This document shows, in pieces, positions 37,201 to 64,000 of a DNA stretch of 64,000 bases (within the stretch, counting starts at the first letter, position 1; every line of letters starts with the position of its first letter). The translations under genes were made by a program, and so were the position numbers. The DNA is from Schmidtea polychroa (taxonomy: Eukaryota), in assembly GCA_044892525.1 (NCBI GenBank), contig CM097886.1, forward strand, positions 79,918,001-79,982,000. The letters are read 5' to 3'. A model generated the notes under the pieces. The model was not told the DNA's origin, made no database searches, and saw only the letters and a list, made by a program, of their open reading frames with translations.

Positions 37201-39489
37201 GGTGTTACACATAGCACTCAGATTGTACTCGATCTGGCTGCGCCTTATCTAAATAACGGTAGAACTGTTGTTACTGATAATTTCTACACGTCTAGGTCGT
37301 TAGCTAATGCATTGATAACACAGCAAACTCATCTTCTGAGAACTCTTAGGAAAAACCGAATTGGTAATCCTACTGAAGTCACTAATTCTAAACTCCGAAA
37401 GCATGAAGTTATAGGTCGAGAGAATTCAGGCATTGTAGTAGCTAAATAGAGGGACAAGCGAGAAGTTCTTATGTTGAGCACAAAGCACGACCTAACAGAA
37501 GTTCGAACTGATCAAAACAAATCGCAATAATGAAGATATCATAAAACTTCAAATGATAATTGATTATAATTTTGCCAAATCAGGTATCGATTTATCTGAC
37601 CAGATGGCTAGCTATTTTACGCCTTTACGCAGAACTATTCGCTGGTATCATAAGATAGCATTTGAGTACCTTCTGAGTACAGCCGTTGTAAACGCTCTTA
37701 TTTTATACAAAATAAGTAAACCAAATATAAAAATAGCTGAATTCAGAATTTCTATTTGTGAATCCCTTTGTGAAACATCAATTTCGTCAGTATCCGTTGT
37801 AGTACAACGTCCTCCAGCTAGACGGCATTTAATACAAACGTATACCGCCAGAAACAACCGAAATAGAATTATACGTAAAAGGTGTGTTGAATGCTACAAA
37901 CAATTGCAACAGCAGAAAGGACGAGAAGAAGCAACAAAAAAACCAAAAGAGTAACAACTTTTTGCAGTGGATGTGAGGATAATCCGCCATTATGTACAAA
38001 TTGCTTTAATAAATTACATTAATTTTTATTTTATATTATATTTTATTATATTTCATATTTTCTTTTGTTTTGTTAATTTTTATAATACAAATTAATGAAT
38101 TTTTATGTTTGAAATAAAATTTTTATGATTGTAATCTTTTCGTTTTTCTCCATTTTGTTCCAGCTATACTTCTAAATGTAGATGTAAACCATAACAAAAA
38201 AACCTTAATTTACTTTTATCAAGGTGCCACTGTATATAAATAAACAGTTTAAGCCCACTGACACAAGAAAAACTTGATTATTCAGTAGTATTATGTATGT
38301 ACCGCCGGCGCTACACGTGGAATATGTATAAAAATGTACTGTGTACTGCGGGCGGGGCATATGGCAGTCAACGTGTTAAGCTGATGAATTATCGTGAACA
38401 CGTGTAAAATTATGTTAATTGTGTTTAGGTGTGCTTGTAGATGATTGAGTGTTTAGAGGATTTTGTTGAACCCAGCAGAGTCACCTTTAAAAATGTTTCG
38501 GACAACTGGGGTGATTTTATGTGAAGTATTCCGAGTTTCAACGAAAGAAAAACTTCACGGTATGCTTGTCTACTTTTCATTATCGAAACGAAAATATCCT
38601 AAATTTAGTACAAGAAAGCAGTTATCGCGCATATACACCAGCCGCCCATTAGAAAATAGCACCAGTGTTTCGATCCCTCGAAATGAGTTTCCACGCAGCT
38701 GGGCGATAAGTTATCGCGAATTTATTGATTTTTAAGTGCAAAAAGTGCAATTTGTACAATAAAACTATCATTATTGATTTAAGAGTGCAGAAATTGTGCA
38801 AAAATCATTATTAAGTTTATAAAATGTTATGAAATTATTGTATGCTTAAATAATGAAAATTTACTTAAGACTCCTGCAAAGATTGTGAAAATTAGCATTA
38901 ATCAAACAAATTTCACAATTGAAAATTCATTTTTATAAAATGGAGAATTTTCTATTAAATTAAATTTTAGGAATTTACCTTGAAGGAGTTTTTAAAATTT
39001 CTTCAAAATCCAATAATTGTTTGATATTTGATTTAGGCACAAATTTAGGAGTAAATTTTAAATGTTTGGATTTTTCAGGAGCTTTGAATGACATCGAAAT
39101 ATTTGAGATACTCACATCGTTTTGCTTGACGGACAGGAGTAATTTTCTAAAGTTTTTGCTTTCAACTTTATCTAATACTTCATAATTGAGGGAACTATTA
39201 GGAACACCTTAACTTGTTTGTAAGTAAATATTTTCATCATTATGTTTTACCTTTTCTCAGATAATACACATGTATATTGTGAAGAAAGAAATTTTCAGGA
39301 ACTATATTATATCCCACAGAAATTCCTTGACCCACAACTAAACCCCCAAACAACTGTTTCTTATTAAAGCTACCAGCAACCAGGCCTCTAAAATTTAATG
39401 TATATTTTTAATTATTAAAATAAAACCAACTGGTAAACTGTATTGCTCAGCATTTTTAATTTAAATATAGATTCGATAATGTTTTTCAT
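12310..39489 (-). CDS. ACOT8: Acyl-CoA thioesterase 8 / TesB-like (double HotDog), 6 exons, 300 aa: complement(join(12310..12437,26249..26449,30235..30383,38979..39207,39251..39387,39431..39489))
   Basis: Spliced by hand with GT-AG sites and consistent phases; 903 nt = 300 aa + stop. Motifs LFGGLVVGQG, LHNIHVYYLRKG, AFLSDY, SSLDHNIWFH and GDLIATATQQGIVR match ACOT8 LFGGQIVGQA, VHSLHCYFVRAG, AYISDY, VSLDHSMWFH and GVLAVTCAQEGVIR. Confidence 0.9.
12862..14198. mobile_element. Non-autonomous TIR DNA element, superfamily unresolved
   Basis: TIRs GAGGCCGTCCATTAAAGTACGTCA versus rc GAGGCTGCCCATAAAGTACGTCA; TAT on both flanks (3-bp TSD candidate). Confidence 0.7.
13247..13830 (-). mobile_element. 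Possible solo LTR nested in the TIR element
   Basis: Abrupt composition change to a purine-rich minus strand; AATAAA near the 3' end; ends in TACA; the 5' TG is not clean. Confidence 0.35.
14452..16375 (-). mobile_element. Tc1/mariner DD39D (plant-mariner-type) transposon, degenerate
   Basis: 30-bp imperfect TIRs CTCCCTCTGTCCCATAATACT..., TA left flank and CA right flank. N-terminus RKLIYEDLLSEIDNGILKRGAY..VSIQTV. Catalytic QDNATPH...NSPDMNILDLGYF with 39 residues between D2 and D3 (one is a stop). Confidence 0.9.
16990..17686. repeat. 21-bp minisatellite (TTGAATAATAAATTTATAACC) with ~258-bp higher-order block; resumes briefly after the Polinton (~25754-25797)
   Basis: Read directly; a variant unit recurs at 17231 and 17489. 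Confidence 0.95.
18527..18598 (-). ncRNA. TIR copy of tRNA-like Pol III unit 3
   Basis: Reverse complement of 24839-24910. Confidence 0.55.
18576..18845 (-). CDS. 89-aa coiled-coil ORF in the TIR (copy 1), unknown function
   Basis: ATG-initiated and identical to 24592-24861. Confidence 0.65.
   Translation of the reverse strand: MDELKERMRNELNEVKHKRMKRREEEPLEYIKELMVDNEKYRHFYMKAVDVADIRLKKMKQLQERVKELESIIYSLKNDKNPILDSAVG
18961..20809 (+). pseudogene. Protein-primed family B DNA polymerase (pPolB), 5'-truncated at the TIR boundary
   Basis: LKFIDSLNF, GIYPYDY, NIRGGVS, YIDATALYS, KILNNSVFGKT, MDTDS, KGI motifs. The N-terminal region is absent; the frame begins inside TIR sequence. Confidence 0.92.
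20800..21317 (+). pseudogene. Polinton packaging ATPase (FtsK/A32-like), lacking Walker A
   Basis: Walker B LVIFDD and RGRHNNCNVIYISQ present; no GxxGxGK(S/T). It abuts the end of pPolB, suggesting a deletion junction. Confidence 0.85.
21329..22727 (-). pseudogene. ZnF + parvovirus-type PLA2 + RVE integrase fusion; frameshift at ~21800
   Basis: CETC..H..KKH; HNYTRPGT..DQAALKHDIAY; WSADL, VIDLYTRFA, CDKGTEF, (frameshift) VERLNRTLK; C-terminal KFKIGDRVRI..FYNNELQK. Confidence 0.9.
22757..24049 (-). CDS. Polinton/adintovirus major capsid protein (double jelly-roll), intact 430 aa
   Basis: Size, context and motifs NNFFPNLFS..L.LG..IE...PG, LFGFLQNY, RPRYILIGF are typical of Maverick capsids. 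Confidence 0.8.
   Translation of the reverse strand: MNNINLKIQEKNKLNLDYNKEFTHEIKKNDVLKISPTSGSIANLNRMGDIVFQSLQTSNPIDICNAKLYYKIELEIEANKDITLENNFFPNLFSNMRLKLGSSEIETVLHPGVYSTMLNFILTGCDYKNEYGELTGWIPDVNKGDLDKDGLDVNHGYHKRAELYKSKKFEGYFELKHLFGFLQNYNRILHNVFIEFICNRVEGDKRLFYGAVDTKAKLKLSTLELHIPEWTLNPHSEIKLLERLNSNKSINVNYLNRICSEFSMTEGSTYSIKVANLAYRPRYILIGFKEVDSSFQKNNNLFIQKIGVDNLKTIQIQLNSSYYPINRMEFNIENNENIFPYLNYIETCYDFKVEPQLSLKDFKNLYSIFCINVSDQDDRLAINNVDVTLHVTKDSNFKAKVYTLILEEKKIEMKLYGGKISIIENFRGDS
24106..24178 (+). ncRNA. tRNA-like Pol III unit 1
   Basis: A box TAGCGGAGTGG at +8 (24113); GGTTCAATT with T at +54 (24159); T7 terminator 24181-24187; cloverleaf stems poor. Confidence 0.5.
24349..24421 (+). ncRNA. 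tRNA-like Pol III unit 2
   Basis: A box TAGCTTAGTGG at +8 (24356); perfect T-arm ATGGG-TTCAAAT-CCCAT with T at +54; T8 terminator from 24422; anticodon and acceptor stems do not pair well. Confidence 0.65.
24592..24861 (+). CDS. 89-aa coiled-coil ORF in the TIR (copy 2), unknown function
   Basis: Identical to 18576-18845. Confidence 0.65.
   Translation: MDELKERMRNELNEVKHKRMKRREEEPLEYIKELMVDNEKYRHFYMKAVDVADIRLKKMKQLQERVKELESIIYSLKNDKNPILDSAVG
24839..24910 (+). ncRNA. tRNA-like Pol III unit 3 (in TIR, overlapping the end of the 89-aa ORF)
   Basis: A box TAGCGCAGTGG (24846); B box GGTTCAAATCC (24889) plus a second GGTTCAAAT (24873); T9 terminator from 24913. Confidence 0.55.
26249..26449 (-). 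CDS. ACOT8: ACOT8-like exon 5
   Basis: AG/GT sites, phase 1/1; LIAFLSDY..SSLDHNIWFH. Confidence 0.88.
26652..26862. mobile_element. hAT-Charlie-type MITE (211 bp)
   Basis: Imperfect TIR CAGGCCTATACAAC / rc CAGACCTGCACAAC; flanks ATTTAGAT and GTCTAGAT (6/8 match, NTCTAGAN-like). Confidence 0.7.
27073..27198. repeat. Foldback inverted repeat (126 bp)
   Basis: Perfect 17-bp outer (AAGAGGAATTCCATTTT) and 15-bp inner (TTGTACATTCATTTA) complementary arms. Confidence 0.85.
28260..28800 (-). pseudogene. Merlin (ISXO2/IS1595-like) transposase remnant
   Basis: Decayed frames MQQRGILHNPRMC, a G.G.QVEI(N)E.LF-like block and SMIDSYTPEFMWKR (cf. YL.EFMWRR). Confidence 0.55.
29300..29800 (-). pseudogene. 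pogo/Tigger transposase remnant (CENP-B HTH)
   Basis: EMEKVLLLWIDDQTSHNVPISQSLIQSKSLTLF. Confidence 0.7.
30235..30383 (-). CDS. ACOT8: ACOT8-like exon 4
   Basis: AG/GT sites, phase 2/1; FPFMLTPVDP..MSYWFTLKPDI. Confidence 0.85.
30672..30831. mobile_element. 160-bp MITE with 26-bp perfect TIR
   Basis: TATAAGGTTTGAAAAATTCGAAGGTT and its reverse complement. Confidence 0.75.
31024..31147. repeat. Foldback element, 49-bp imperfect arms
   Basis: AAGCTTAAAGATTATG...TTTTTGATATTCA paired with TGAATATCAAAAAC...CTTCAAGCTT. Confidence 0.8.
31149..31212. repeat. (TA)n(TG)n microsatellite
   Basis: Read directly. Confidence 0.95.
31534..31820. repeat. Tandem duplication, ~148-bp period, 2 copies
   Basis: AATCGATG..GTGATATGAAAAG..CACCGAGAAAGAG at 31534 and 31682. 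Confidence 0.85.
32169..35591 (+). mobile_element. hAT (Tip100/ZMYM1-like) full-length transposon
   Basis: Perfect 8-bp TSD CCTATGTG (32161-32168, 35592-35599); imperfect 13-bp TIR CAG.C.CG.ATTA; subterminal CGTAGGCCCTAGGCAC repeats. Confidence 0.95.
32810..35378 (+). pseudogene. hAT transposase with one stop (34016-34018) and one frameshift (A-run ~34723-34730)
   Basis: WLIYS..CYIC, LPFRG, DSTPD, SYDNA, CAAHSLNL, ETRW, ERSFSKLKRIK, RLSALTLLSIE. Confidence 0.92.
35975..38375 (+). mobile_element. piggyBac transposon, full length (2401 bp)
   Basis: TTAA TSD both sides (35971-35974, 38376-38379); 14-bp perfect TIR CACGTTGACTGCCA. Confidence 0.97.
36307..38022 (+). pseudogene. piggyBac (PGBD4-like) transposase, disrupted
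   Basis: VDESM, TDNFYT and GIDLSDQ catalytic motifs; Cys-rich tail (CVEC..CSGC..LC..CF..LH); TAG at 37447-37449 and frameshifts. Confidence 0.92.
38979..39207 (-). CDS. ACOT8: ACOT8-like exon 3
   Basis: AG/GT sites, phase 1/2; LNYEV..NFRKLLLSVKQND..SFKAPE. Confidence 0.88.
39251..39387 (-). CDS. ACOT8: ACOT8-like exon 2
   Basis: 43-bp introns on both sides; QLFGGLVVGQG..HNIHVYYLRK. Confidence 0.9.
39431..39489 (-). CDS. ACOT8: ACOT8-like exon 1
   Basis: ATG at 39489; MKNIIESIFKLKMLSNTVYQ resembles the TesB/ACOT8 start; phase-2 donor. Confidence 0.8.
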
Positions 39490-45216: not shown

Positions 45217-48149
45217 AGTGTTTTTTTTAAATAATAAATATTACATTGAAACCGTGTTGAAAATTTTCTTCGTTCAAGTTACAATTAATTTTGGGGTTTG
45301 GATTTTATTTTAAATAATTAATAATTTTTATTAATTTTTATGTAATACAATATTATTGGTTAACACTAGATTTACGGACTGAGCCAATTTGACTAATTTA
45401 AAATTCTTTTGCTACATATATATAATACTGATTTACTATATTTTGAATGCATATGTTGGATTTTGGATACCTCATGAAATATAGGTCAATATTAATTACT
45501 CTCCTCTATCGACTCCCTCATTTTTTTTATATCGAATTAGGTATACCTATTTTTACGGCTATTTTTACCTGTAAACCTAGTGTTAAGAAGTCAAATTATT
45601 TATGCAAATATATCGCGTTGCATGTGATAAAAACTTTATTGAGGTGTAATGCCAAGAAAATATACAAAGAAAAATGAGAAATCATTCCATATAAATTATT
45701 GTCAGATTTTATAAGAATTAATGGATATTTCACATTTTAAATAACCCTAATTTCTCGCGTATAACCTGCACCTAATAAATTTCAATAATTTCCATAAAAG
45801 GTAAAATTTTTCACTTATAAACCACACTTAGGTACTTCCGTGTTATCTTACCCCCAAAAATTAAATTATAAAATACAATTAAAATGTTGGGCTAGAACTG
45901 ATTTCTAGACCCAAAATACTAATTGTGACTGAAACGCGTAGGTACACAGCAAGTAAAAAAGCACCAAGTATAGTTAAATATTAAAACCTACACCAAATAA
46001 ACAATATTAACTAAAGGAGAAAGCAACAAAAACATAAACAAAGAAATTAAACAAAATTATACAAAAGCAAGAAGTGATGCAAAAATCTAACTCAAAAATA
46101 ACCAAATAAACACAGAGTTACAAAAAACAGACTCGAATAACTTAAAAGACGATAAAAACAGTAAAACATTCCAGAAAAACCCAGAACATTCTATAAAAAT
46201 GGCGATGACCATCACAAAAGTTATCTAGAACAACAAAAGTTAAGGAAAATAAATAAATTAGTATTAAAAATAAAAAATCTCAAAAAGAATTCATAAAAAC
46301 ATCAGTTAAAATAAAAATTAAATTAAAAGTAAAATAGAATGTTCTGGAACCGTTCCAAATCCATCATGGACGTAAAATTAATGAAAAATAATTAAAAAAT
46401 AAAAATATAAAAATAAAAACAAAAATTATTGCACAAAAATTGCCATTAAAAATAGCAAAATCGTAAAATAGAAAATTCTGGAATAAATAGAATTCGAGTT
46501 TGTTTTAATGCATCAATACATACACGTGTACAAAATAGGTATATATACTGACGCGTTTCAGTCAGAATTAACCATTATTTTATGCCAAAATTTTTGTGTC
46601 AACAAAATATCAACAGTGAGTACGATTGATTCATTTTATCTATTATTATTTTATTTTATTATTATGTATTGTTGTCTCAACTATGTTAAGCTATTAAAAT
46701 GTTTTATATTTTGAATTTGTTTAATTAAAGTTTTTTTTTGATGTACGAATGTTCAACGGCGTACCGGTATTCCTGCGTCGTTGTTCAGTCCTGCATTTAA
46801 TTTTTGAATTCGATTTCACATGCACACATACATTATTTATATTATACTAATCACTTATTATATGGCTCTTTTTGTGTTCGGGTCCTTCGGAGGTCGAACT
46901 ACTTCATGGTCCTGCCATGGAGTTAGGTCGAGGAAAACCTCCGCCTGACTCTTTGTATTTATGTAAGGTCGACCGTAAATGGTTGACTCAACACATAACA
47001 CTAAGGTTTGTGGAAGTGGTCACAGTGGGGCCATGGAAGCAATATTCTTCCCGACTCATTACGTAATATACAATTAAACTCAACACTTAAAATTCTGAAC
47101 AAATAACTCCACACTAAGGTCTTAATCTGAGTAGAACTCATACTTAAATTAACACAATTATACAAATCACAGCAATGTAGATGGTTGATCAGTTATGCTT
47201 AGACATATGCCGAATTGGGTTTTCGTAACAGTCGTTTATAGTAATCAGAGTAATGGAAAGGTTAAAGATATTCGGCATACGTGTAAGTATAACATAATCT
47301 GGTTAAGTCTTCGAATCAATATAACTGTAAATATTCCGGACCCCAAAAATTAAGTTGCGAAATCCCATCTTAACATACTTATAAGTACTCGGTTGTAATA
47401 ATCTTTTATGTTGATTATAAAACTACAGGTGATAAATGACTATGTCGTTGTAGGTACGAATTATAGCCAGAGAATATAAATTAGGAATTCAGAAATTGAG
47501 GTATAAATCGGGAATGGTAATGACCAATCTCCTAATGTAAAAAGTCAATCAACTTGAAACTAGTTATACATAGATATACTGCAACTCTGAAGTGATAAAA
47601 CGATACCCAGAAATCGGTAAGACAATGTTGATAATAGAAAGGGAAGTTAGAAAGAAGTATACCAAGCTGACCAAAAATTAGAACTCAAAAATATGAAATT
47701 ATAAATTAGGAATACCGAATTACAAATTGTAAATCATAAAACCTAAAATTTTAAATCAGAAAATATAAAATCATAAATGGTAGAATATCGGATTATAACT
47801 TATAAGATATAACATTATAATTTACGAAATATAAATGGATAAATTATAAAATATGAAATTTTTAATTGTAAACGATAAAATTATAAATTATAAAATATCA
47901 ATTCCTAAATTACAAAATATAAAAATTATGAATTGCAAAATAAAAATTTATAAACTATAAAACTTAAATTTGCAAGTTATAAAATATAAATTTATAAATT
48001 ATAATTACCTATAAACTATAACCACCTATATATTACTTAACAAAATGGTATAAATATAGAGTATGAAAAAACTAGAATTAATACTTAACTTAGAAATTTC
48101 GAAATATATATAGTTACAATAAGCTTGCCTCTAAGTACAAAAATCCCTT

Positions 48150-48850
48150 TAAGATTATAAAATAACTGTAAAATTATTGTAATTCTTAATATCATCACTA
48201 GGATTTCTATTAATATTACTAATATTATTAGTATTACCATTATCACTAGTATCATTATTATCCCTATTCGTATCATTATTATTACTATTATTGCTATCAT
48301 TATTATTAATATGATCACTATTATTATTATTATTATTACTATTATTACTATTATTATTGTTATTATTGTTAATATTATCACTANNNNNNNNNNNNNNNNN
48401 NNNNNNNNNNNNNNNNNNNNNNNNNNNNNNNNNNNNNNNNNNNNNNNNNNNNNNNNNNNNNNNNNNNNNNNNNNNNNNNNNNNNNNNNNNNNNNNNNNNN
48501 NNNNNNNNNNNNNNNNNNNNNNNNNNNNNNNNNNNNNNNNNNNNNTTATGATTATTACTATTATTAGTATTATCATTATTATTATTATTATTACTACTAT
48601 CATTATTAATATTATCATTATGATTATTATTACTTTTATTATTATTATTATGATTGATATTATTATTATTATTAACCTCGTTATCATTACTACCCTCATT
48701 ACGACCATTATTATTACCATTATCCTTATTATTATTATCGTTACCATGGTTATTATTGTTATCCCGGTTGTTGCTATTAGTACTATTAACGATAAGTTAT
48801 ATACGACTTGACTAGTATTATTACTAATACTGCCCTTAATATATATAATT
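48150..48850. repeat. (ATT/ATC/ACT)n low-complexity tract with an assembly gap (~48383-48545)
   Basis: Read directly. Confidence 0.9.
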
Positions 48851-49952
48851 TAATTGTAGATAGACATATATATATATATATATATATATATACTTAGTCA
48901 TGGTGGAATATATTAGTAAATGCATAAATATTATACTGATTATATATTATCATTATTACTACTTATAAAAATCAATATCCCAATCTGATATTGATTTTAG
49001 GATTTCCCCAATAAATTAAATATAGAAACAACCCTTTGAGCCAATCAGAGGGATCAGAATTCGGAAAAACTATTTTTAGCAACACCCCCCCCCCCCTCTG
49101 GGAGAATGTTACCATTATTCAAGCCACCTAGGGATGTGAATAAGGGGGTAGGATCAGCTATGCAAGTTAACACTGAATATATAATCAAACTTAAGTTTTA
49201 TCAAATCAACCTAAACGAGAAATTTTATTCATCAAATTGCCTTGAATAATAAAGTACTGTACACCCGGGTTATAGATGCCAAGCACCATGATTTTCACCT
49301 AAGAACGAGAAGCCGAACTCCAGGAGCTGAATCTCTAACTCTCCAGCTGAAAAACGATCGCCAAATTGTCCCTAAATTAAACACATACGATGAAAGAATA
49401 AATTACCCCAAATGCATAGACGATGATTTTACCACTTATAACGAATACAACCAGGGGAAGAGTAAGTGGGCAAGAGACTGAGCTCGTCACTAGTACCCTT
49501 CGCCTGACGTAATCGCATTTAGTGGAAATATTCACATCTACAGAAAATTACCTAAAATTTCCAAAATTTTAACTTATAAAATTCAAATTACCAACTAGTG
49601 GTAAATAAATGACGAATGATTAAATCAATAATTTAAAACAAAACCATTTTTTTTTGAGATTTTCGGATCGGGTATGGATTTTCTGATGTTAACACTTAAC
49701 TCTAATGAATTTTTATTTAATTAAAAAGTATATCAATAGATTAAATAAAATTTGGTCATGTGAGGAGGATTTATATTAATTATAATAAATTTAGTAGTAT
49801 AATAAATTTAGTAGTATAATAAATTTAGTAGTATAATAAATTTAGTAGTTAAGTACTATTGATTTTGAACAAGAACTTTCTGTATGTTTGTTATGACATC
49901 TATTTATAAGCCACGTTGGCTACGAGCGGGCCTTAATATTCATATTATAGAC

Positions 49953-50318
49953 ATGTCGCAATCGAGCTCTAGCAGTGACGAGGGTACTGACCATCAGACG
50001 ATCACCCGTCTCCGGACCCGGTACATCTGGCACCATATACATCGGTGGGGTCAGGGAAGGGACCTGGACTGCGCAAATAGAGTGATCCGGACGGGCCCCG
50101 AAGTAGATGCCCCGGCATGGGTGAAGGTGGAGCCGGGGAATAACCGGTAACAGGAGGCCCGAGATCAAGCAGCCTGGGAGGTGGAAGCCGCTCAGATGCG
50201 ACTCAAGAAGATCGAGATGCAAATCAAGGCGGAAAAGGAGGGAGTGCCTCTGGAAGAATTGGAAGAGGTCGAGGCACACCCGAGAAAGAGGGGGAGGCCC
50301 CGCAAGCACCCCGCGTAA
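49953..50318 (+). pseudogene. LTR-encoded ORF A (121 codons, one in-frame TAA at 50148-50150) ending in an AT-hook
   Basis: The frame stays open past the TAA: QEARDQAAWEVEAAQMRLKKIEMQIK..PRKRGRPRKHPA. Followed by AATAAA at 50441. Confidence 0.65.
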
Positions 50319-50609
50319 TTGTGGGAGGACAATTTGCTCGACATTGACAATTTGTTTTTATATGAACTAATTATTAGGAATCTGCTGTGTTTATTTTATC
50401 TTTTAATTTTGTATTAATAGACGTCGGGTGTTTATTCTCGAATAAAGTATTCTTAGGTGTTTTGTAAATCATTTGATAGATGGGGGGGGGTATAAGGATG
50501 CCCTAGTAGGAAATGTTAAGATTAATTCATTGATTTTAATACTTATTGTCCTAACTTTATTGTTGGGTGTAATGGGAACTAATGAATTTCCTCTTTAGTG
50601 TACAAGTTA

Positions 50610-51068
50610 ATGGAAAATCTCCGGAAGGATCGGGAGCAGGCCCAACACCAAGTCGACGAATTTCGGATCCGGGTGGACAAGTTGAAGGGAAAATGTCGAG
50701 ATTTCGAAGGGACCTGGTTTAGTCCCGAAGCAATGAAAAAGAAAACCGCCCAGATCCTCCAGCTGCAAACGCAGGCCGCCCAAGACCAAATGGAAATCCG
50801 CGCCCTGAAGCTACAGGTGCGGGCGCTCGAAACTGAGAAAAACGAGCAGTTGGTACAAGGGGCTATAGCCAGACAAATACGGCCACTGGCTGTGGACCTC
50901 GCAACTATATATCCCCCAGCCGCTGAAAATAAGCCCAAAAGGAAACGGCTTGGCCGAAATATTCGGGAAAAATTGAAGAAAGCTAGGCTGGCCGAATACG
51001 AGCGGCAAGCAAATTCGTCACCAGCAGCCACGACGGAATTGGCCAGTCCTACCAATAAGCCTGTTTGA
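50610..51068 (+). CDS. LTR-encoded ORF B (152 aa), coiled coil + basic motif
   Basis: FEGTWFSPEAMK and KPKRKRLGR shared with the 9600-10334 ORF. Confidence 0.75.
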   Translation: MENLRKDREQAQHQVDEFRIRVDKLKGKCRDFEGTWFSPEAMKKKTAQILQLQTQAAQDQMEIRALKLQVRALETEKNEQLVQGAIARQIRPLAVDLATIYPPAAENKPKRKRLGRNIREKLKKARLAEYERQANSSPAATTELASPTNKPV

Positions 51069-51474
51069 ACTTATATTCGGTTTTAGGTGTTTTGTAGTAT
51101 ATTTATGTATTGTTGTAGTCTTCAAATAATATGTTCCTTGTTAAAATAATGCACATTTTGTAGTGATAAAATAATGACTAGTATAGTTTATGATTGCCTG
51201 GAAAATGGGAGTTTGTGCATAAGGTTGGGAAAACAATTTTGATAAAGGGACCTGAGAAATCGGACACACACCTTCTATCGGTAGTCCGTGAACCCATGGA
51301 GTACTCGACAATTATAGTGCTTTGATGCGCTCACTTTTTGCGAGTACTCAACCCCTTGGTACAGTACCAACGTTGATTACTCAACGGGTACCAAGCGGAA
51401 ACCAACGTTGTATTTTGGGTTACGCTGGTAACAGCACTCAATCATTCAACCACCAGTAACCCACCATACAAATT

Positions 51475-51492
51475 TGGGGGCTCAGCCGGGAT
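51475..51492 (+). promoter_or_regulatory. Primer-binding site complementary to the tRNA-Pro 3' end
   Basis: TGGGGGCTCAGCCGGGAT(TTG); 16/18 identical to the canonical TGGGGGCTCGTCCGGGAT. Confidence 0.9.
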
Positions 51493-52189: not shown

Positions 52190-52672
52190 ATGGAATCAAC
52201 CGGCTACATTATAAAGAGACTCGAGAAATTCGTAAATTTAACACACAATTCGCTACAACGACTAAATCGCAAAGCGGACCAGTTGGTGAAAATCCAAGAC
52301 GAGATGAGCTTGAATCCAAGACCGCAAGCTGAGGAAATATGTGTAATGATGAAAATAGCAACACCAAATGCAGAATTGACCACTAAAAGAGTTTATCAAA
52401 TTCAAAATTTACGATTAGATGATGCCAAATTTAACATCAAATGGCAGGAGATAATGATGAAAATGGAAACGATCGAGGAAGAAATTAAAGAAACAATCGA
52501 ACATCAAGTTAAAGATTTTAGAAAATGCTTCATATGCAGAACCAATGAAATACGAGTAATGACGATCCCATGTGGTCATTTATGCTACTGCGAGAATTGC
52601 GCAGAAAAAATTAAACGATGCAACGTATGCGATACGAACGTGAGAGAAAAAATTGTAATATACCTCCCGTAA
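52190..52672 (+). CDS. Coiled-coil + C-terminal C3HC4 RING (IAP/MDM2-type), 160 aa, in the element leader
   Basis: CFICRTNEIRVMTIPCGHLCYCENCAEKIKRCNVCDTNVREKIVIYLP-stop; no BIR domain. Confidence 0.88.
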   Translation: MESTGYIIKRLEKFVNLTHNSLQRLNRKADQLVKIQDEMSLNPRPQAEEICVMMKIATPNAELTTKRVYQIQNLRLDDAKFNIKWQEIMMKMETIEEEIKETIEHQVKDFRKCFICRTNEIRVMTIPCGHLCYCENCAEKIKRCNVCDTNVREKIVIYLP

Positions 52673-54073: not shown

Positions 54074-54522
54074 ATATGGCGTAATGGTTTAAAAGCCCAG
54101 GCGTCGAGGAGTCGTAAAAGACTTCAGATTATGATTAAACCGGCCGGAAGCCGATGCCGACGTGGAGGTCTAATAAACCAAAGCGTTGATGGGTAATAAT
54201 GGATTATATGGCGTAATGGTGTAAAAGCCCAGGCGTCGAGGAGTCGTAAAAGACTTCAGATTATGATTAAACCGGCCGGAAGCCGATGCCGACGTGGAGG
54301 TCTAACAAACCAAAGCGTTGATGGGTAATAATGGATTATATGGCGTAATGGTGTAAAAGCCCAGGCGTCGAGGAGTCGTAAAAGACTTCAGATTATGATT
54401 AAACCGGCCGGAAGCCGATGCCGAACTGGAGGTCTAACAAACCAAAGCGTTGATGGGTAATAATGGATTATATGGCGTAACGGTGTAAAAGCCCAGGCGT
54501 CGAGGAGTCGTAAAAGACTTCA
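54074..54522 (+). repeat. 132-bp tandem repeat, 3.4 copies, with degenerate flanking units
   Basis: ATATGGCGTAA at 54074, 54206, 54338 and 54470. Confidence 0.95.
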
Positions 54523-55440
54523 TGAGATTAAAATGAGTTGATTAAACCGGCCAGGGAGCCGATGGTAATTGAGTGAAATAATTTAAATGAAATAGGAGAG
54601 TAGATTGGACCGGTCAGGGAGTCGATGATAAATAAATGTAGATGCAGAGGTCGCGCGAACCAAAGCATCGATGAGTAACTATGAAATTGATTAAATTGAA
54701 ATAGATTAAGTGCGACAAATATGTAAGGAGTAAAGGAGAATTATGATAAAGCGCCGGCGCAAGAGAAAATAAAACCAGTTTTTGGAGGGGAAAAGCGAAC
54801 GAATAGATATTAGTTGAGTTACTGAATTTATTTATTAATGATATGTGTACTTTGATATTTCTATAATTGATATTATATTTGATAATTATAAAAGGGATAG
54901 ATAATTGATGCGACTATATAGATAATTGATATGAGTTATAGATAATTTAAAATCGACTTAAAATCAAAATGGGGCGAATAACGAGAAGTGTAGAAAGTTA
55001 GAAAATTTGAAGCGAAGGAACAGTAAAATAAAGGGAAAATGGGAAGTAAATGAAGGGTTTAATAAAGAGAATTTATGATATGTACTAGAGGTGTTAATTA
55101 TTTTAGAATAAAGCAAACAATTCAGAAAGAAATCAAAGAAATCAAGAAAGCAATAGAAATCAAGAGATCTAGAGAAACCAATCAAAAGCAAGGAATCAAA
55201 GAACTTAATAAAATTAGAGAATTATAAAGATTAAAAAAAAAAAAAAAGCGAGACAATAATCAGAAAATCGAAGCTCGATCGACTAAGTAGAAAATTTATC
55301 AAAGGATATTAAAAGGAGGAAAAATTGATAATATAGCTAGCCGAACCAGACGAAAAAGTAAGGGAAACCTCAGTTTATTAGAAAAGGAAGAGATAGAAAG
55401 AGCCAAGAAAAACAGAAAACTACACAAGAAACCAGCATCA

Positions 55441-57537
55441 GTGGAAACAGCATTTGAATCCGACAGTTTAACTAACGAATTTGAGAACAGCGACGATTTC
55501 AAACGAACCGAATTAGATCCAATAAGCGACGTCGAATCAACTGAAGAAGAGGAAAATATATCCGAGACAACAGAGATAACCGTACTGTGCCAAGAGATAA
55601 TGTCGGACGGAAACACGAACGAACCAAGGGTAACGGACCCACCGGAAACAAGTAATGTGCACGTCAACATTGGAGAATTCAGAGAGAAATTTCGAGGAGA
55701 GCCATTCGATGGAAATATAAACCAGCTAGAAACATTTATAAAAGAATTTGAGGTATACATTACGATATGTCACTGGCCAGACATAGTCGTACGAGAACGA
55801 ATACCCCTATATCTAAAGGGAAGCGCCCAAGACGTATACTTGGAGGCGAAATGTGATGCAACAAAGTTGAGAACGTGGAAAGAGATCAAGGAGTTTTTAA
55901 TAAAAACATTCGGTACCGAAAAAGAAGGAAATCGAAAAATGTTAGACTTCCTGCATCGAAAGCAGAAATATAACGAATCCAACGCACTGTACGCATGCGA
56001 ATTGAGACGACTAGCACGAGAAGCCTTCGATTCAAATCAACCAGTTCCGGAAGACAAGATAATAGCCGTATTCGTAGATGGCATGAAACGAGAGGATATA
56101 CGAGCAACCTTAGGATGTCGAGCACCAGAGACGCTGGAAGAAGCACTAAAAATAGCCAACAAATGCGAAACTTACCTAACACCAATACAAGTAGCAGCAA
56201 TGACAGCAGCTCCAGCAGCTCCAGCAACAACAACAACCACAAACAACCAAGTCAATAATGCAAATCCAGTAATGAATCAATTCATCCCAGGATCGCAACA
56301 GTTGTTCAAAACCCCACAAACGAGAAACCAAGACAATGGAGGTAATATTCAAAATTTTACTAATAATTTCAGGAACAACGACAATCGAACGTGCAACATA
56401 TGCCAACGATCAGGGCATTGGAGCAATGAATGTTATAGAGCAAGGATGTGTCAAAAGTGTGGGAGAAGAGGCCACACGGAAACCATCTGCAGAGGTCCCA
56501 CGATGCCTACGGGCAGAGGAGGAACTAGAACCTCCTACAATTGCAACCAGCCTGGACACATGGCCAGAGAATGCACGATGAGAGCCAAACCAAATCAACC
56601 AGGATCAAACAACCCAATTCAGAACACGCAAATCAACCTCATGCAGGAAATCGAACAATTAAAGGATATGATCCAGCGAATACCGACTAATAATCAACAA
56701 CAACGAATCAACATGATGCAGAGCACCGAAGAAATCCGGAAACAACCAAGTAAGCAACAACAAGACCAACAACGAATCGAATGGCAAAGGTTACAAAACG
56801 AAGAAGCCAGAGAAATTCAAGAAAGATGGAAACAACGGGAAGCGAATCCCGGAAGAATAAATATGATGAGGTTAACAAATAAAGAGGAATCGCACACTGC
56901 GGAGCAGTGTGTTAACAACGAAGGGAGTGATCTGATAAAAACGACGAAAGAAAATGAGATTGATCCACAGACAAAATTGAGCAGCGAAGAGAAAATACAA
57001 TTGATTAAAGAATTTACCAAAGAGGAGAAAGAAAGGAGACAAAAGAAAGATGAGAGCCAAGACGAATCAAAAAGCAATGAGATAGTTACAAAAAATCGAA
57101 TTCAGAGGGTACTACTACAAAAAATCGAAGACAGAATCAAAAACGAAAACCCTACATTAACTAAGGAACAAATCAAAGAAAAAGTGAAAGAGCATTGGTT
57201 CAGGAAAAATGAGTGGTTCGAAAAGAAAGAACCACATACCAAAGCTAAAATAAACATGTTGAGACAAATGCGGAGTGATCAGACGGATCAGGAAGATGAG
57301 AAAAGTGAGGTGAGTAGCCTGGGAGGCGAATTATTTCAGTCAAGTGAGGAAAACAACGAACCGAAAACACCTCCAAACAGTGAAACACCTCAAAGTAGTG
57401 ATGAGAGTGAAAATGATGACATAAAATCAATGATAGAAAAAGATGATGAGGAGATATTTGAGGAAATTTTCGACACAGTAACAGAAATAGAGCGGAATGA
57501 GAGCTACATCAACGAGCTAACATATAGAAATGCGTAA
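55441..57537 (+). CDS. gag: Gag (capsid + three CCHC knuckles + long acidic/Gln-rich extension); first in-frame ATG at 55600
   Basis: FRGEPFDGNINQLETFIKEFE capsid start; CNICQRSGHWSNEC, CQKCGRRGHTETIC and SYNCNQPGHMAREC (third knuckle C to S) at 56392-56574. Confidence 0.92.
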   Translation: METAFESDSLTNEFENSDDFKRTELDPISDVESTEEEENISETTEITVLCQEIMSDGNTNEPRVTDPPETSNVHVNIGEFREKFRGEPFDGNINQLETFIKEFEVYITICHWPDIVVRERIPLYLKGSAQDVYLEAKCDATKLRTWKEIKEFLIKTFGTEKEGNRKMLDFLHRKQKYNESNALYACELRRLAREAFDSNQPVPEDKIIAVFVDGMKREDIRATLGCRAPETLEEALKIANKCETYLTPIQVAAMTAAPAAPATTTTTNNQVNNANPVMNQFIPGSQQLFKTPQTRNQDNGGNIQNFTNNFRNNDNRTCNICQRSGHWSNECYRARMCQKCGRRGHTETICRGPTMPTGRGGTRTSYNCNQPGHMARECTMRAKPNQPGSNNPIQNTQINLMQEIEQLKDMIQRIPTNNQQQRINMMQSTEEIRKQPSKQQQDQQRIEWQRLQNEEAREIQERWKQREANPGRINMMRLTNKEESHTAEQCVNNEGSDLIKTTKENEIDPQTKLSSEEKIQLIKEFTKEEKERRQKKDESQDESKSNEIVTKNRIQRVLLQKIEDRIKNENPTLTKEQIKEKVKEHWFRKNEWFEKKEPHTKAKINMLRQMRSDQTDQEDEKSEVSSLGGELFQSSEENNEPKTPPNSETPQSSDESENDDIKSMIEKDDEEIFEEIFDTVTEIERNESYINELTYRNA

Positions 57538-60500
57538 AACTTATAACTCAAGTATACCAGTGTGAAGGAGGTATAATAACGGCAGCATGGAAAGATTTAG
57601 CAACAAGATATAAAGAGAAACTAAAGGAAGCAGGCCCAGATCAATATCAGTTAAGTATTCAACACCCCGAGATTCAGATACAGACTATTGAATTAAAAGG
57701 AACAAATACCGATGAACTGTACAACTGGGTACAGGAAAAAATGGGAACGAGCCATAAAAATAAACAATTATATGTCGATGGTTACAAAGTTAAAATGGGC
57801 ATACATTTGGTAGATGCGATGATATGGCCAAACGAAACTAACATCTTAACCTTAGAGAAAACCAGAGACGACGAATCAGTGGCGGAAATGTTCCAGAAAA
57901 TCCAACAAGTGTTTAACAATGAAGTGGAACCAGAATTGGAAAAGATCGAACGAAAAATAATGAAAGAAAACCAAATAATCTTGGTTAAACAAGCTATCGA
58001 TCAGGCAAGAAAATATATTAATAGACTGAGAAAAAGATGGCCACAACTAATGAAACAATTTGTCAAAGACGTACGAGACACAGAAATTATGAGATTCGAA
58101 GATAAACGAGCGACAGAATTGATATCTAAATACGGAGAATACGAGAGAACCAAATGCGAACGAGAAACGATAAAAATAAAGGTGAAGTTGCCAAATGAAG
58201 AGAAACAAATAATAGAAGTTGACCCCGATTGCCAAGTTGACGAGTTAGTGCAAATCATAGATCAAGAGATCATCCAAAAAGCTCGAGAAAATAGTGAGGA
58301 TGGAATGATCGAAGATGTGATAATAATGTACAACCGGCATATGTTAGAAAGAGGAGACCGAACTGTAATTTACGAACTAGGAATCTGGGAAGATGGAGCC
58401 GTCATCAATATAATCGCGATGGATGAACCATCGGGTGGACACAAAAACGCCACCAAAACCGATCAACAAATCAAGAGATTCCAATGGGGAATGAGAGCCA
58501 AGATGGATCGAATAATAGATATTTATAACCATTGGCTAAAGGATGACAAACTAAAACTAACACCATTCAATGACGAAGATTGCAAACTGATACCGTGGAA
58601 GAAGGTGTGGATCGAAAATGAAGTTCGATGGGATTGGGAGCAGCAAAAGTTGGAACCAAATTGGATAGATAATATACCAGAAGAGATCGCAGCAGTATGG
58701 GTAAGAGAGAAACCGATCGATACTTACCAGGATATATTACCACAAGAATTCCAAAATGAATTACAACCAGGAGAAGATGAGGAGATACGAGAACCGGTAA
58801 GGTTAGCACCATTCACGTGGAAAATTGAGAATTGGATGGAAAAGATAAAATTAGCAAAAAAGGAGAAAATCACACGATTAGTAAGCCCGTCGTTCTACTC
58901 AGGATTAGGTGAGTACAAGATGAAATTGCGAATATACCCGAACGGAGACGGGGTAGGAAAAGGAAGTTATGTGTCGGCATTCTTCATCATCTGCAAAGGG
59001 AATTATGACGGCAAGGTACCATGGCCGTTTAGCAGAAAAGTGACGATAGCGATTGAACCACTGAAAGATAGCCTTAACATACATAAAGAAACATTGAAAC
59101 CAGATCCAAGGAGCGCCTGCTATCAACGACCAACAACATCAGAAAATATCGCTTCAGGGACACCTAAATTAATACGTCTAAATTACATTGAGAATGAGCA
59201 GTCAATATTTGTGAAAGACAATGCTATCCAGATCAGAGTAGAAGTTGAAACAGAACAAGAAATGAACCAACGACTGAACATACCAGAAAATCAACCGAGA
59301 ATCTGTATGATGAGGAGAAGACTGCTTGATTCAGGACATCTGCCAATAGACGCCGACGCAGATGAGGAAGAAGCAGCAACATTGTTGGAAGCACAAAAAT
59401 GTAAGGAGTTGATGGAGATATTACAAAACGGTGCGAAAAATCGTCGACGAGCGGTGGTAGAACTAGCAAAATGGGTAGCCAAATCATGCAAAAGGATTCA
59501 AAACCTACGAAAGATCGTTAAAGCGATTGAAGAATATCGACGGGTATACGTATGGTACCCTGAACAATTTGGTGAAATCATCCGGAAATGGAAACAACAA
59601 GAGTGGGCCGAAAACTCACCTGAGAAATATCAACTAAAAATATTCTTGCCAGATTTTGAACCAATGGAAAAGGAATTCTACACAACAGCCAAGGTCAGGG
59701 AAGTTAAAAAGAGAATACCTTATGAACTCCCATTCCACTTACAACACGAGGGACGATCATTAGACGACGATATTGAGATTGGTGTGACACCACTCCAAGG
59801 AGAAATTGTGAACAGATTAACGGTGAGTAAAATTGCAGGTAGAGAGTTAAGGAGAAGAGAGATAAAGCAAAAATCATCCACCCAACAACCAGGAAGTTTG
59901 GACACACCAGAAGTTCCAAATGCGGTTAGTGAAGTGACGATCGAAACAACGGGAGAAGACGAAATACTAGACGAATTACAGGAGATAGTAGAAGCAGGCG
60001 AGATTATGAGAGCATCGCAATCGGGAGATCTATTTATCGACGAAGGTGAACCAACAATTGATGATCTAGATGGATTTGTATGTGCGCAAAGACAACCAGT
60101 GGAAACGACAGAAGCCGAGACGGATTTAGATAATGTGGGAGGAAGTGCCAATAAAGATGTAACCACAACCGATGAATGGAGTAACTGGAGAGTAGATCCA
60201 GGAGCGACCACGTCAAAAGATACAACTTACAATCCGCCAAAACGGAAAGAAACCGGAACGGCTATGGATCGACGAACAAGAGGAAGACCAAAAACAGATA
60301 AAGCAGAGGTGGAACCAAAATCCAAAATTCAAGCACAAATGGAACAGGTAAAAACTAAAATGGATAAACTAAGCGCATTAGTAAAACAAGTCAAAGTGAA
60401 AACAAATGTCCGGGAACAAGGGACACGATGGATAAACGACTTATTAGCTAACATGTTAGCGTTAGCAAATCCAGATGTGAAAAGAGTAATGAGGAAGGAT

Positions 60501-60929
60501 CATATCCCGACCGAAGCCAAACAATTATGGGCGGTATTGAAACCGATAATAATGAAAATCATGGATAATAAAATTCGATTAACGTTAAAGGATCCCGTGG
60601 AACTCAGATTAATTGTGGAACATCTGTTAAGCAGATCAGAAGACCAAAATCGATATTTAGTGGGATTAGCATATTTGGTGTATAACGTCATTGGTCAATA
60701 TAAAAAACGAATGCCAAAATATAACGCAACTGGTTACGAATTCACAGTAACAGAAATAATCAAACGATCAATAGAACCATATATACTTGAACAAGGGGGA
60801 TGGAGAAACTTCATCGAATCAACTGGGAAGAAAGATCAAACGGAAATGATGCAAGCAAAGTTACGCGATTTGCTAACTGAATTCGAAGGAACAATCAATA
60901 TGAACGACCCAAGAGCAAGCCGAAAGGGA
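57528..60929 (+). CDS. Accessory polyprotein region: UBL1 (57645-57854), UBL2 (58170-58415), TRAF-C/MATH (58809-59246), UBL3 (59628-59825), Bcl-2-like (~60429-60830)
   Basis: The frame is open from 57528 and overlaps the end of Gag. TRAF motifs FTWKI, SPSFY, RIYPNGDG, WPF..KVT, QRP..N.ASG.P; BH2-like IEPYILEQGGWRNF; ubiquitin-like strand/helix patterns. Confidence 0.85.
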
Positions 60930-63144
60930 ATGAATGCCATAATAACCACGATATTGATATGGATGATGTGTATCAAGGGAACGGAGTCATTTGCAGTATA
61001 CGACTGCGACAACATAAAAATCCATGAGAAATATTCATTAAAGGATACGGAAGACTGTAAAGCGGCAAACCCAAGAAAATTACAAACAGTCATGGCATCA
61101 GTTTCGTATAACGTATATCAAGAAGCAGATTTCATCAAAACCATGGTCCAAGAGTGTACAGTAAACCAGAAAGATATTCGCACATCACTGCGGTTCATCC
61201 TCACACTCAACAATCATAGAACCGGGATTGGAATCGACAGTAATATTATTATCAAGAGAGGAATGTGAGGAAGGATTTCGATCGGGGAGAATTCACTTAA
61301 GACAAGGGATTGAAATTGCTGCAGAAGCAGGAAAAATAAAAACGACTCGCGTATATACGGCAGGCAGAATAACCAAAGGGGATGGAACATGCGAGACGGG
61401 AACATACACCCTGAACGGACAGCTGGTTAGTGGAGTGGTCGTAATAGAAAGTTACGAAGCTAAATTAGAAAGATATCAAGGTTATTTCGACCCTGACACG
61501 CAAGCAATGAAGAAATACCCAAGTTGTCTCGCATCAGATCGATCATGTTCAACCGGAATGTCAACCCTGGTATACCACGCAGATCAGAAAGTATGTCGAC
61601 TAATGTTACTCAAAACGGCAATATTCGAGGAAATCCAAGGGAAAGTGTACAGTGAACCAAAAGGAGCAGCAGAAAGACGAGCGATGGAAGAATTGAGAGC
61701 AAGGAAAGGATTCAGAGAAGACGTAATAACATCGAAATTGGAATCGGAAGTAACACCCACAGCGATAATCTCCAAAGATGATGGAATAGGAATGAGATTC
61801 ATAAAGAACAAAATGGTGAGTAAATGCGATGAGATGGTGATCAGTACCAATTATAAAGGGATCTACTTGTCGCGGAGAACCCTAGCAAATGCAGTCGGAA
61901 GACTAAGCGAAAAAGATGTCAAATTATATTTATATGCTAATAATAAGATGGATTTCTTATATCACAGAGGATTAACATCCACGGAAAAAGTCTACCATGA
62001 TCTGTTAAGAAACGATTGCCTGCTCAACAAAGAAATATTGAGAACGAAATTAGCAATGGCGATTACAAATCCAGATAACGCAATCCCGTTACTACCATTA
62101 CAGGAAGGATATTTCGGACGAATTGTAGGCGAAGTGATGTACACCTACCAATGCAAGAAGATAATGGCAAGATTGCCGGAAAACCCTACAATACCAAGGG
62201 ATAAATGTGCAAACGAACTCGAAATCATTCACGAAGGTAAACCCAGGTTTGTGCAAGCAGTCACCAGGATAATGAACCCGGCAGGATTTCAGCCAAATTT
62301 GTTTAATTGCAGTAATGCATATGGACCAATGTATGAGGAAGAGGATGGACAATGGGTTCAATTTCCAAGTAAAACAATCGTAGTAACACCCAAGAAGTTC
62401 GGATTGACGGAACTAACAACAGAACTAGAGTTCAAACCGATAGACGTATCCCAGAGTGGATTATATACACCAAAAGATCTTGAATCAGCAAGAGCCCACA
62501 TGTTATTCCCAGCACAAAGACAGGCGATCTTATCAAATATAGTGACTATTTCTGGAGGAAATAATTATGGGGAGAGCCCAAATTACGAGCTACTATTATC
62601 ACCAAGTCACTATCAACAGGCAACAGCAAATATGATGAAGGCTATGTGGGGTCGATTTTTGGTATTCGGCCAAATGATGGCAGGGATACTCGGAATCATT
62701 CTGATAATACAAATAGTCAGAGTGATACTAACTCAGATGCTAGCATGTTTTGATATTTATAAACGCGAGAGAAAAGTAAATTGGAAACTTGCAATTGGAT
62801 TCTTACCGTTCTTAGCGAAGACAATGGTGCTGCATGGACACTCAAAGGATATCCATCGAATAAAGAGATTGTTGAAAATATTAACGCAAATGAAAGGGAC
62901 AGACGAAGAAGTCGGACGTAAGTTCAAAGTAATAATGAGATTAGAAGCAGAAAGAACTCAAGAGAAAGCGAAAAGAACCGGGAAGTGGAAAAGGTGGATG
63001 AACCTCAGACGAGACGATGATAGTGATGACAATGATGATTTCGACGACGATGATAATAACCAAGGAGGAGCAATGTTGATAAACAAAAACCCAACCACTT
63101 GGGAAAACGAAAAAATGAAACCATGGGGATCACCATATTTATAG
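60930..63144 (+). CDS. env: Envelope glycoprotein, chuvirus/mononegavirus-like; 1-nt frameshift at ~61164
   Basis: Internal signal MNAIITTILIWMMCIKGTES then FAVYDC. The +1 correction gives ECTV-TRKIFAHHCGSSSH. LYLYANNKMDFLY, GYFGRIVGEVMYTYQC, C.NEL, TRIMNPAG..C; TM segment ~62656-62740. Confidence 0.85.
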
Positions 63145-64000
63145 GCACCAACTAATGGACCAATGCGACGACCAGGAACAATGAGAGAACGGATAAGAAT
63201 GGGAACCGCAAGATTACCCATACCGAACATTTATCCAACAGCTTATGAACCAAATTGGGCAGCAATGGATCCAACGATGATCAAACAGGCTAAAAGTGTA
63301 GAACAAGAAGTGGAGACACGAACGATCGGGGTATTGCAGACACCAGCCGGACCATCATTAACCATCACGGTTGAAGTAAACGGAATAGAAATGGATGCAA
63401 TGATTGATACCGGAGCGAATATCTCAGCAATAAATATGAATATGCTACCAGGTAGACTATGGCCATGCATCGAGGAGACAACCATGGATGTAATAACATG
63501 CAGCTAACAATCCATAGCGGTAGTAGGAAGAGTATGGTCAACGATCGAATATAAAGGGGTTAAAGTTACAACGTACCTCGCAGTCATTAGACAGCTAAGC
63601 GTATCATGTATAATTGGAACAGATGTAATGCCGGAATTATTGAAGGAAATTGTGATTGATTTGAGTTCCATGAAATTAAAAGATAAAACTGGACAGATAT
63701 GCACAATGAGAACAGAAGTGAGATGCTCCGAAAAAATGATAATACCAGCACGTACCCAGACAATATGTTATGTCAAGGTCGATAACGAAGCCAAAGGAGA
63801 TATGATATTTGAACCAAGTCAAAAATTCGAGAAGAGAAGAGAGCTGCCATTGGCAAGAGAAATTGTCAGTATAAATGAGGATAACGAGATACCCATTAAC
63901 ATCACCAATTTTGATGAGGAAGATAAAGTAATCTACGAAAACGAGAGACTTGGAAAACTCACACCAATGATGAACATTGAGCTGCCGGAGATAAAAAGCG
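63145..64000 (+). CDS. pol: Pol 5' end: aspartic protease followed by a degenerate dUTPase-like spacer; in-frame TAA at 63505-63507
   Basis: AMIDTGANISAI and, after the TAA in the same frame, CIIGTDV then IPARTQTICYV..LAREIV..IPINITN. Same frame as Env across the TAG at 63142-63144. Confidence 0.88.

Follow-up and report, generated by a model that had tools for sequence, protein, structure and literature searches.

The envelope glycoprotein (Env) encoded near the end of the window is placed before pol in a giant, probably Ty3/gypsy element of Burro type, and in unbroken copies of the same genome it is fused in one open reading frame to Pol as well as to Gag. "The window" refers to the whole stretch of 64,000 nucleotides that was analysed (Schmidtea polychroa, assembly GCA_044892525.1, contig CM097886.1, positions 79,918,001 to 79,982,000, forward strand). 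This layout, Env before pol and in frame, is real in the family yet already published. The Env is under strong purifying selection, is predicted to have a class III fold (herpes gB/chuvirus G-like), and is best explained as a class III fusion protein, carried in the Gag-Pol frame, that probably fuses the budding particle with a new cell.

The element is about 36.6 kb long (5.9-kb nested insert excluded), with an internal region of about 25.5 kb; its parts are given in the table. The 5′ and 3′ LTRs differ by 6 mismatches and 3 gaps in 5,428 aligned bases, and AAAA is found on each side of the element. GC-rich, coding-like stretches of the LTR are found at 49,950-50,330 and over the 160-codon ORF, for which a Pfam search gave no clear match. 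The primer-binding-site-like sequence may resemble a tRNA-Pro site. The three CCHC knuckles of Gag are located at 56,392, 56,449 and about 56,536. In the accessory block, the MATH domain (58,812-59,246; MATH_2, E 2.5e-27) is preceded by a ubiquitin-like region (weak OTU1_UBXL match, E 0.007-0.01); the BCL2-like region carries a BH2-like motif at 60,780, and its top PDB matches are to Bcl-xL, weak (E 0.45 over the BH2 motif). Beyond the window lie the reverse transcriptase (RT), RNase H (RH), integrase (IN), ankyrin repeats, a second membrane protein, TRAF-like and BIR-RING ORFs and the 3′ LTR. Pol has the order PR-RT-RH-IN (PR, protease) with Integrase_H2C2 (Pfam). BEL/Pao domains, including DUF5641 or Pao, are absent from the Pfam matches of the element, and no Pfam match is listed for the PR-RT linker, where a dUTPase-like domain was sought. 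The cargo comprises RING, MATH, a weak BCL2-like region, ankyrin, zf-TRAF with MATH, and BIR-RING.

Table. Features of the Burro-type element. All are on the + strand where a strand is given; L001 is a sequence beyond the window.
Feature	Position	Strand	Remark
5′ LTR, 5.58 kb, TG...CA	45885..51466	+	match to the 3′ LTR beyond the window
AT-rich microsatellite block inside the 5′ LTR	within 45885..51466	+	
160-codon ORF in the LTR	50,586-51,068	+	found in both LTRs
Primer-binding-site-like sequence	51475..51492	+	8 bases past the 5′ LTR; sequence only
Upstream accessory ORF with RING finger	52190..52672	+	PF13920, E 3e-12
Leader tandem repeat, 132 bp, 3 copies	54074..54522	+	
Gag: three CCHC knuckles, coiled/acidic region	55600..57537	+	zf-CCHC, E 3e-10
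Accessory block (ubiquitin-like, MATH, BCL2-like)	57528..60929	+	
Predicted internal Env signal peptide	60930..60989	+	11-residue hydropathy 2.35
Env ectodomain, 547 aa in unbroken copies	60990..62631	+	14 Cys
Membrane-proximal helix, single TM, weaker amphipathic stretch after it	62632..62832	+	TM at about 62,674-62,730
Env tail and linker to the protease	62833..63360	+	
Aspartic protease (DTG) and PR-RT linker	63361..64000	+	MIDTG at about 63,400
Second signal-ectodomain-stalk-TM protein	L001:3848-6631 (about window +67,900 to +69,630)		beyond the window

Further ORFs are found downstream of the chain (L023:5586-10000; L021:984-4573): zf-TRAF with MATH, BIR-RING, coiled-coil, and uncharacterised ones, of which a 153-aa ORF has a pN/pS of 0.08. 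The insert nested in the 3′ LTR (L021:6327 to L022:3236) is a 5.9-kb LTR element without env; its own LTRs are 99.5% identical and it is bordered by a TTCGG duplication. Elsewhere in the window are found: an exon of a Ras-family (Rab-like) GTPase (1,277-1,780); a Polinton/adintovirus-like remnant (18,893-24,058) encoding a type B DNA polymerase, an A32-like ATPase, a PLA2-like protein with an integrase, and a double-jelly-roll protein; and two transposase remnants, one DUF4371 (32,696-35,378), presumably hAT-like, and one piggyBac-like (DDE_Tnp_1_7; 36,274-37,954).

The initial annotation had described an internal signal peptide, an AxYDC start, an HCG.xSH motif, a conserved Cys pattern and a TM anchor, located between the accessory block and the protease. 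All of these were recovered. The mature start FAVYDC is found at 60,990, directly after the signal-like stretch, and HCGSSSH at 61,186. The ectodomain Cys are retained in 106/114 to 100% of the aligned rows (116-row alignment), far beyond chance. The MATH/BCL2-like block lies 5′ and the MIDTG of the protease 3′. The window ORF 61,165-63,144 matches PF24664 (Monjiviricetes fusion glycoprotein) with an E of 1e-59. The ectodomain carries a single N-glycosylation sequon; a furin-type site (R-X-K/R-R) was sought in it and is absent.

The statement that Env is in frame with Gag holds for the family and fails for the window copy. This copy shifts frame where Gag passes into the accessory block (about 57,528) and once more inside Env (61,165-61,253, between AVYDC and HCG.xSH). 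It also has a premature stop in the Env tail/linker (63,142-63,144) and a stop in the protease (63,505-63,507); the full chain cannot be encoded by it as assembled. Sister copies were taken from a DNA search of the same genome, in which 40 of 582 Env candidates were scored (all 96-100% identical) and 19 copies were used for comparison; the first-look numbers of candidates (Env, 582; PR-RT, 847; second protein, 438) are not copy numbers. The frame is open from Gag to the Env signal in 7/19 sister copies, from the Env TM to the protease in 14/19, and from Gag through Env and PR to RT in 6/19, which gives the gene order of intact copies; in the remaining ones the positions of the breaks differ from copy to copy. 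The end of Env at 63,144, as initially annotated, is thus a premature stop, which 14 of the 19 sister copies read through. The frame runs on in unbroken copies, so that the normal product joins Env to Pol in addition to Gag, a point absent from that annotation. The open frame extends on through RNase H, integrase and ankyrin repeats; from IN through ankyrin to the second signal it is open in 11 of the 18 downstream stretches. Open frames of 3,311 aa and 1,813 aa are found in overlapping stretches of the same copies, from which ORF1 is obtained by arithmetic as about 4,790 codons, stop to stop. In the window copy (55,291-64,000, with L001), ORF1 has at least five breaks although the LTRs differ at just 6/5,428 bases: either a defective template was copied in trans, or these are assembly errors. 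Spliced joints were surveyed in contigs of 7 runs (guessed to be RNA or of unknown type): in two listings, of 15 and 14 joints, there is not one with GT..AG ends or one by which Env would be cleanly removed. The contigs are short; the survey is therefore no evidence against splicing.

The fold of Env was predicted with AlphaFold2 from the sequence of an unbroken sister copy and the 116-row alignment (pLDDT 89.1; pTM 0.71); the membrane-proximal and TM segments are helical in the model. In a Foldseek search of the PDB, all 37 listed matches are herpesvirus gB (best E 9e-15); the TM-score of the monomer model against solved gB is only 0.21-0.43, which counts against the preferred explanation. 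In BFVD, chu-like glycoproteins and their kin take the top places, with a best E of 4e-39 and a TM-score that reaches 0.64. A sequence search of the PDB with Env gave nothing relevant (1 match, E 1.4). Taken with the PF24664 match, these searches bear out the assignment to chuvirus-related class III glycoproteins made at the outset, at the level of a predicted fold.

Selection was estimated as pairwise pN/pS over the 19 copies; the values are descriptive, because the copy pairs share history and are not independent. They are 0.048 for the Env ectodomain and 0.069 for the Env TM, 0.017 for PR, 0.024 for RT, 0.093 for Gag CA, 0.21 for MATH and 0.10-0.21 for the cargo domains. Env is under strong purifying selection, nearly as constrained as RT.

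The membrane topology of the chain was read from hydropathy. In the 3,311-aa frame, the Env TM is the only 19-residue window above 1.4 (2.53); the stretch that follows it is only weakly hydrophobic here (1.28) and in most relatives (up to 1.71), with 1.44 in a named chuvirus G. A shorter hydrophobic core precedes the mature start xx[YF]DC in all 18 polyprotein Envs examined. One strong TM between Env and PR implies an even number of membrane passes and hence a cytosolic Pol; the simplest reading would be signal in, stop-transfer out, Pol left in the cytosol. The polyprotein with internal signal and stop-transfer helix proposed in the initial annotation agrees with these values. A similar order (capsid, internal signal, lumenal fusogen, stop-transfer helix) is found in the structural polyproteins of alphaviruses and flaviviruses, whose fusogens are of class II. 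The likeness is one of topology only, the fusogens being unrelated, and flaviviruses are closer, since there the enzymes follow in the chain.

The proposed life of the polyprotein is as follows. A chain of about 4,700 aa would begin in the cytosol as Gag and accessory domains. The internal signal would thread Env into the ER and be cut by signal peptidase (judged from hydropathy and motif). The TM helix would stop transfer, so that PR-RT-RH-IN-ankyrin would be made back in the cytosol, tethered to the tail of Env. Near the C-terminus, another signal and TM would export a second type I protein. During assembly, Gag and Pol would be released by the protease of the element, after which trimers of Env would merge the membrane of the particle with that of a neighbouring cell (stem or germ). 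It counts against this model that a 1:1:1 output of Gag, Env and Pol is unlike retroviruses; splicing or regulated processing might lie concealed behind it. Several relatives (P0007, P0010, P0011, P0012, P0013, P0016, P0019) have two or three aspartic-protease domains; one of these directly follows the tail of Env, and P0007, P0010 and P0011 have one after the integrase. These extra proteases may release Pol from membrane anchors.

Instead of fusing particles with new cells, Env could serve intracellular assembly: it would hold Gag and Pol to the ER membrane, and particles would bud and re-enter within one cell or cross cell contacts, none being released as a free infectious particle. In favour of this, both Gag and Pol are tied to membrane segments by the layout, Env has a single sequon and no furin-type site, and the chain ends in TLV in 17/18 downstream stretches. 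A mere anchor would, however, need no intact fusogen fold, whereas constraint close to that on RT extends over the entire ectodomain and its 14 Cys; this explanation is considered doubtful. Far less probable still is that Env is a non-fusogenic cargo (e.g. a superinfection blocker) or a decaying passenger. The element is rich in host-modulating cargo (MATH, TRAF-like, BIR-RING, ankyrin) and the window copy is broken, but the pN/pS of Env is below that of every cargo domain, and signal, ectodomain and TM are retained together in relatives at 28-42% identity.

In the initial annotation, Env was taken for an independent capture, which is read here as a recent acquisition of a chuvirus gene by this planarian element alone. 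Chu-like G are indeed the best BFVD matches, and the G of Tacheng tick virus 4 is among the sequence matches (E 2e-36). Much closer matches are however found among other polyprotein Envs, at 28-45% identity and E values as low as 1e-147. A search of representative proteins with Env gave 991 proteins at a threshold of E 0.001, and 40 at the stricter 1e-30, the best being long chains; PR and/or RT follow Env in the same chain in 16 of the 30 database relatives scanned. In a FastTree phylogeny (124 of 162 rows, midpoint root, one named chuvirus row, most rows unnamed; rows covering <450 profile positions or spanning >=800 residues were dropped), a single clade (SH-like 99) unites 19 polyprotein Envs and excludes the Tacheng tick virus 4 G and a BEL-type Env; four of the 19 rows (P0003, P0014, P0015, P0017) have no Pfam protease match after Env. 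The layout is also common to two other families of the same genome (L040-L049), with Env about 34% identical; one of the two agrees by eye with Smed_errantivirus_2. An ancient acquisition is likewise argued for in the main text of PMC13524379. Env falls in a probably old polyprotein-Env clade, and sequence comparison makes it unlikely that this family alone acquired it recently; a separate chuvirus capture into this element alone is given very little credence.

The initial annotation took such envelopes to be confined to the 3′ side of pol; this is outdated, because elements with env before pol are described in the main texts of PMC6431247 and PMC13524379. In the former (2019), the planarian Burro has Env in frame between BCL2 and PR, called the first such case, with an internal region up to 25 kb and an ORF1 of 4,873 aa; its Env is given matches to mononegavirus glycoproteins and an HHpred link to gypsy Env (F-type). 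Burro-1/GYPSM1 are giant gypsy-like planarian LTR elements, for which PMC6431247 cites Grohme 2018 and Jurka 2007. The element studied here resembles them, as judged from the published description: it has an internal region of about 25.5 kb, a total above 30 kb, one long ORF (about 4,700 aa, against 4,873 in the published element), three CCHC knuckles in Gag, MATH, ankyrin and BIR domains, a putative BCL2-like region, and Env in frame between that region and PR. Unlike in that account, the fold search gave class III here and the gypsy-Env link was not reproduced; a second membrane protein after the integrase, not in its text on Burro, is present.

PMC13524379 (2026) describes, in its main text, gB-type GAG-ENV-POL errantiviruses in Nematoda, Bryozoa and Platyhelminthes, six of them in Schmidtea mediterranea. 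The order is read there as a rearrangement in long-standing gB-type lineages, and the entry mechanism of elements with gB-type envelopes is called unknown. Shared with these HSV/gB-type elements are the gB-like ectodomain flanked by signal and TM before POL, the multicopy state and the lack of a required furin site. With Smed_errantivirus_6, 42 of the first 59 aligned ectodomain residues are identical (about 70%, counted by eye). GAG, ENV and POL are treated as ORFs in PMC13524379, the words 'polyprotein' and 'in-frame' being absent from its main text, and no LTRs are listed there for the Smed elements; LTRs were found here.

With the G of Chuviridae/Jingchuvirales (PF24664), Env shares the xx[YF]DC start, HCG.xSH, 14 Cys, a single TM with an amphipathic stretch, and the predicted class III fold; unlike Env, chuvirus G is a free-standing ORF with an N-terminal signal, is 20-25% identical and falls in a separate clade. 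Anakin, a BEL/Pao element with a chuvirus-like glycoprotein (PMC7642597; cited in PMC12440569), likewise has a homologous glycoprotein in an LTR element, but behind pol; here Env precedes PR, and no DUF5641 or Pao domain is found. The BEL-type match P0065 also has an internal Env signal; its Env comes after the integrase-end domain DUF5641 and is on a different branch of the Env tree.

The second membrane protein follows integrase and ankyrin in the same frame: second hydrophobic signal, Cys-bearing ectodomain of about 360 aa, Thr-rich stalk, TM and a TLV tail, which by consensus is presumably of PDZ-binding type. Its pN/pS of 0.09-0.34 indicates purifying selection. A signal and TM after the integrase are found in both sister families of the same genome and in 4 of the 5 database relatives with such a tail (P0007, P0009, P0011 and, least clearly, P0022); the tail of P0010 lacks this layout, and P0023 ends at the integrase. 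For comparison, the RT-IN spans served as 7 controls, in which there is one hydrophobic stretch of this kind. The post-integrase proteins of the sister families and relatives have no BLAST likeness to the version of this family. A search for homologs of this protein over 1,815 candidates, 997-3,173 aa in length, gave none at the E 0.01 threshold, Pfam and Atlas searches gave no match, and there is no BFVD match at E 0.001. The single-sequence model is poor (pLDDT 49.5) outside residues 211-307, which are modelled as a generic beta-sandwich (best Z 8.5). For the version of a sister family, fibronectin-III clusters were obtained at 0.84-0.88, a lead only. By analogy with gD and gH-gL, which act on gB in herpesviruses, it is conceivable, as a tentative proposal, that the two proteins form a two-part entry machine in which the second would bind a receptor or dock at junctions and trigger Env. 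The second protein may be new: it is not mentioned in the main texts of PMC6431247 and PMC13524379, whose figures or supplements may mention it.

Added here to the published accounts are a predicted class III fold instead of the 2019 gypsy-Env link, RT-like selection on Env, and a topology that would leave Pol cytosolic. Being young and numbering hundreds of copies, the planarian elements offer a place to ask by what route retrotransposons with gB-type envelopes get into cells, and the second membrane protein provides a testable lead on this question.
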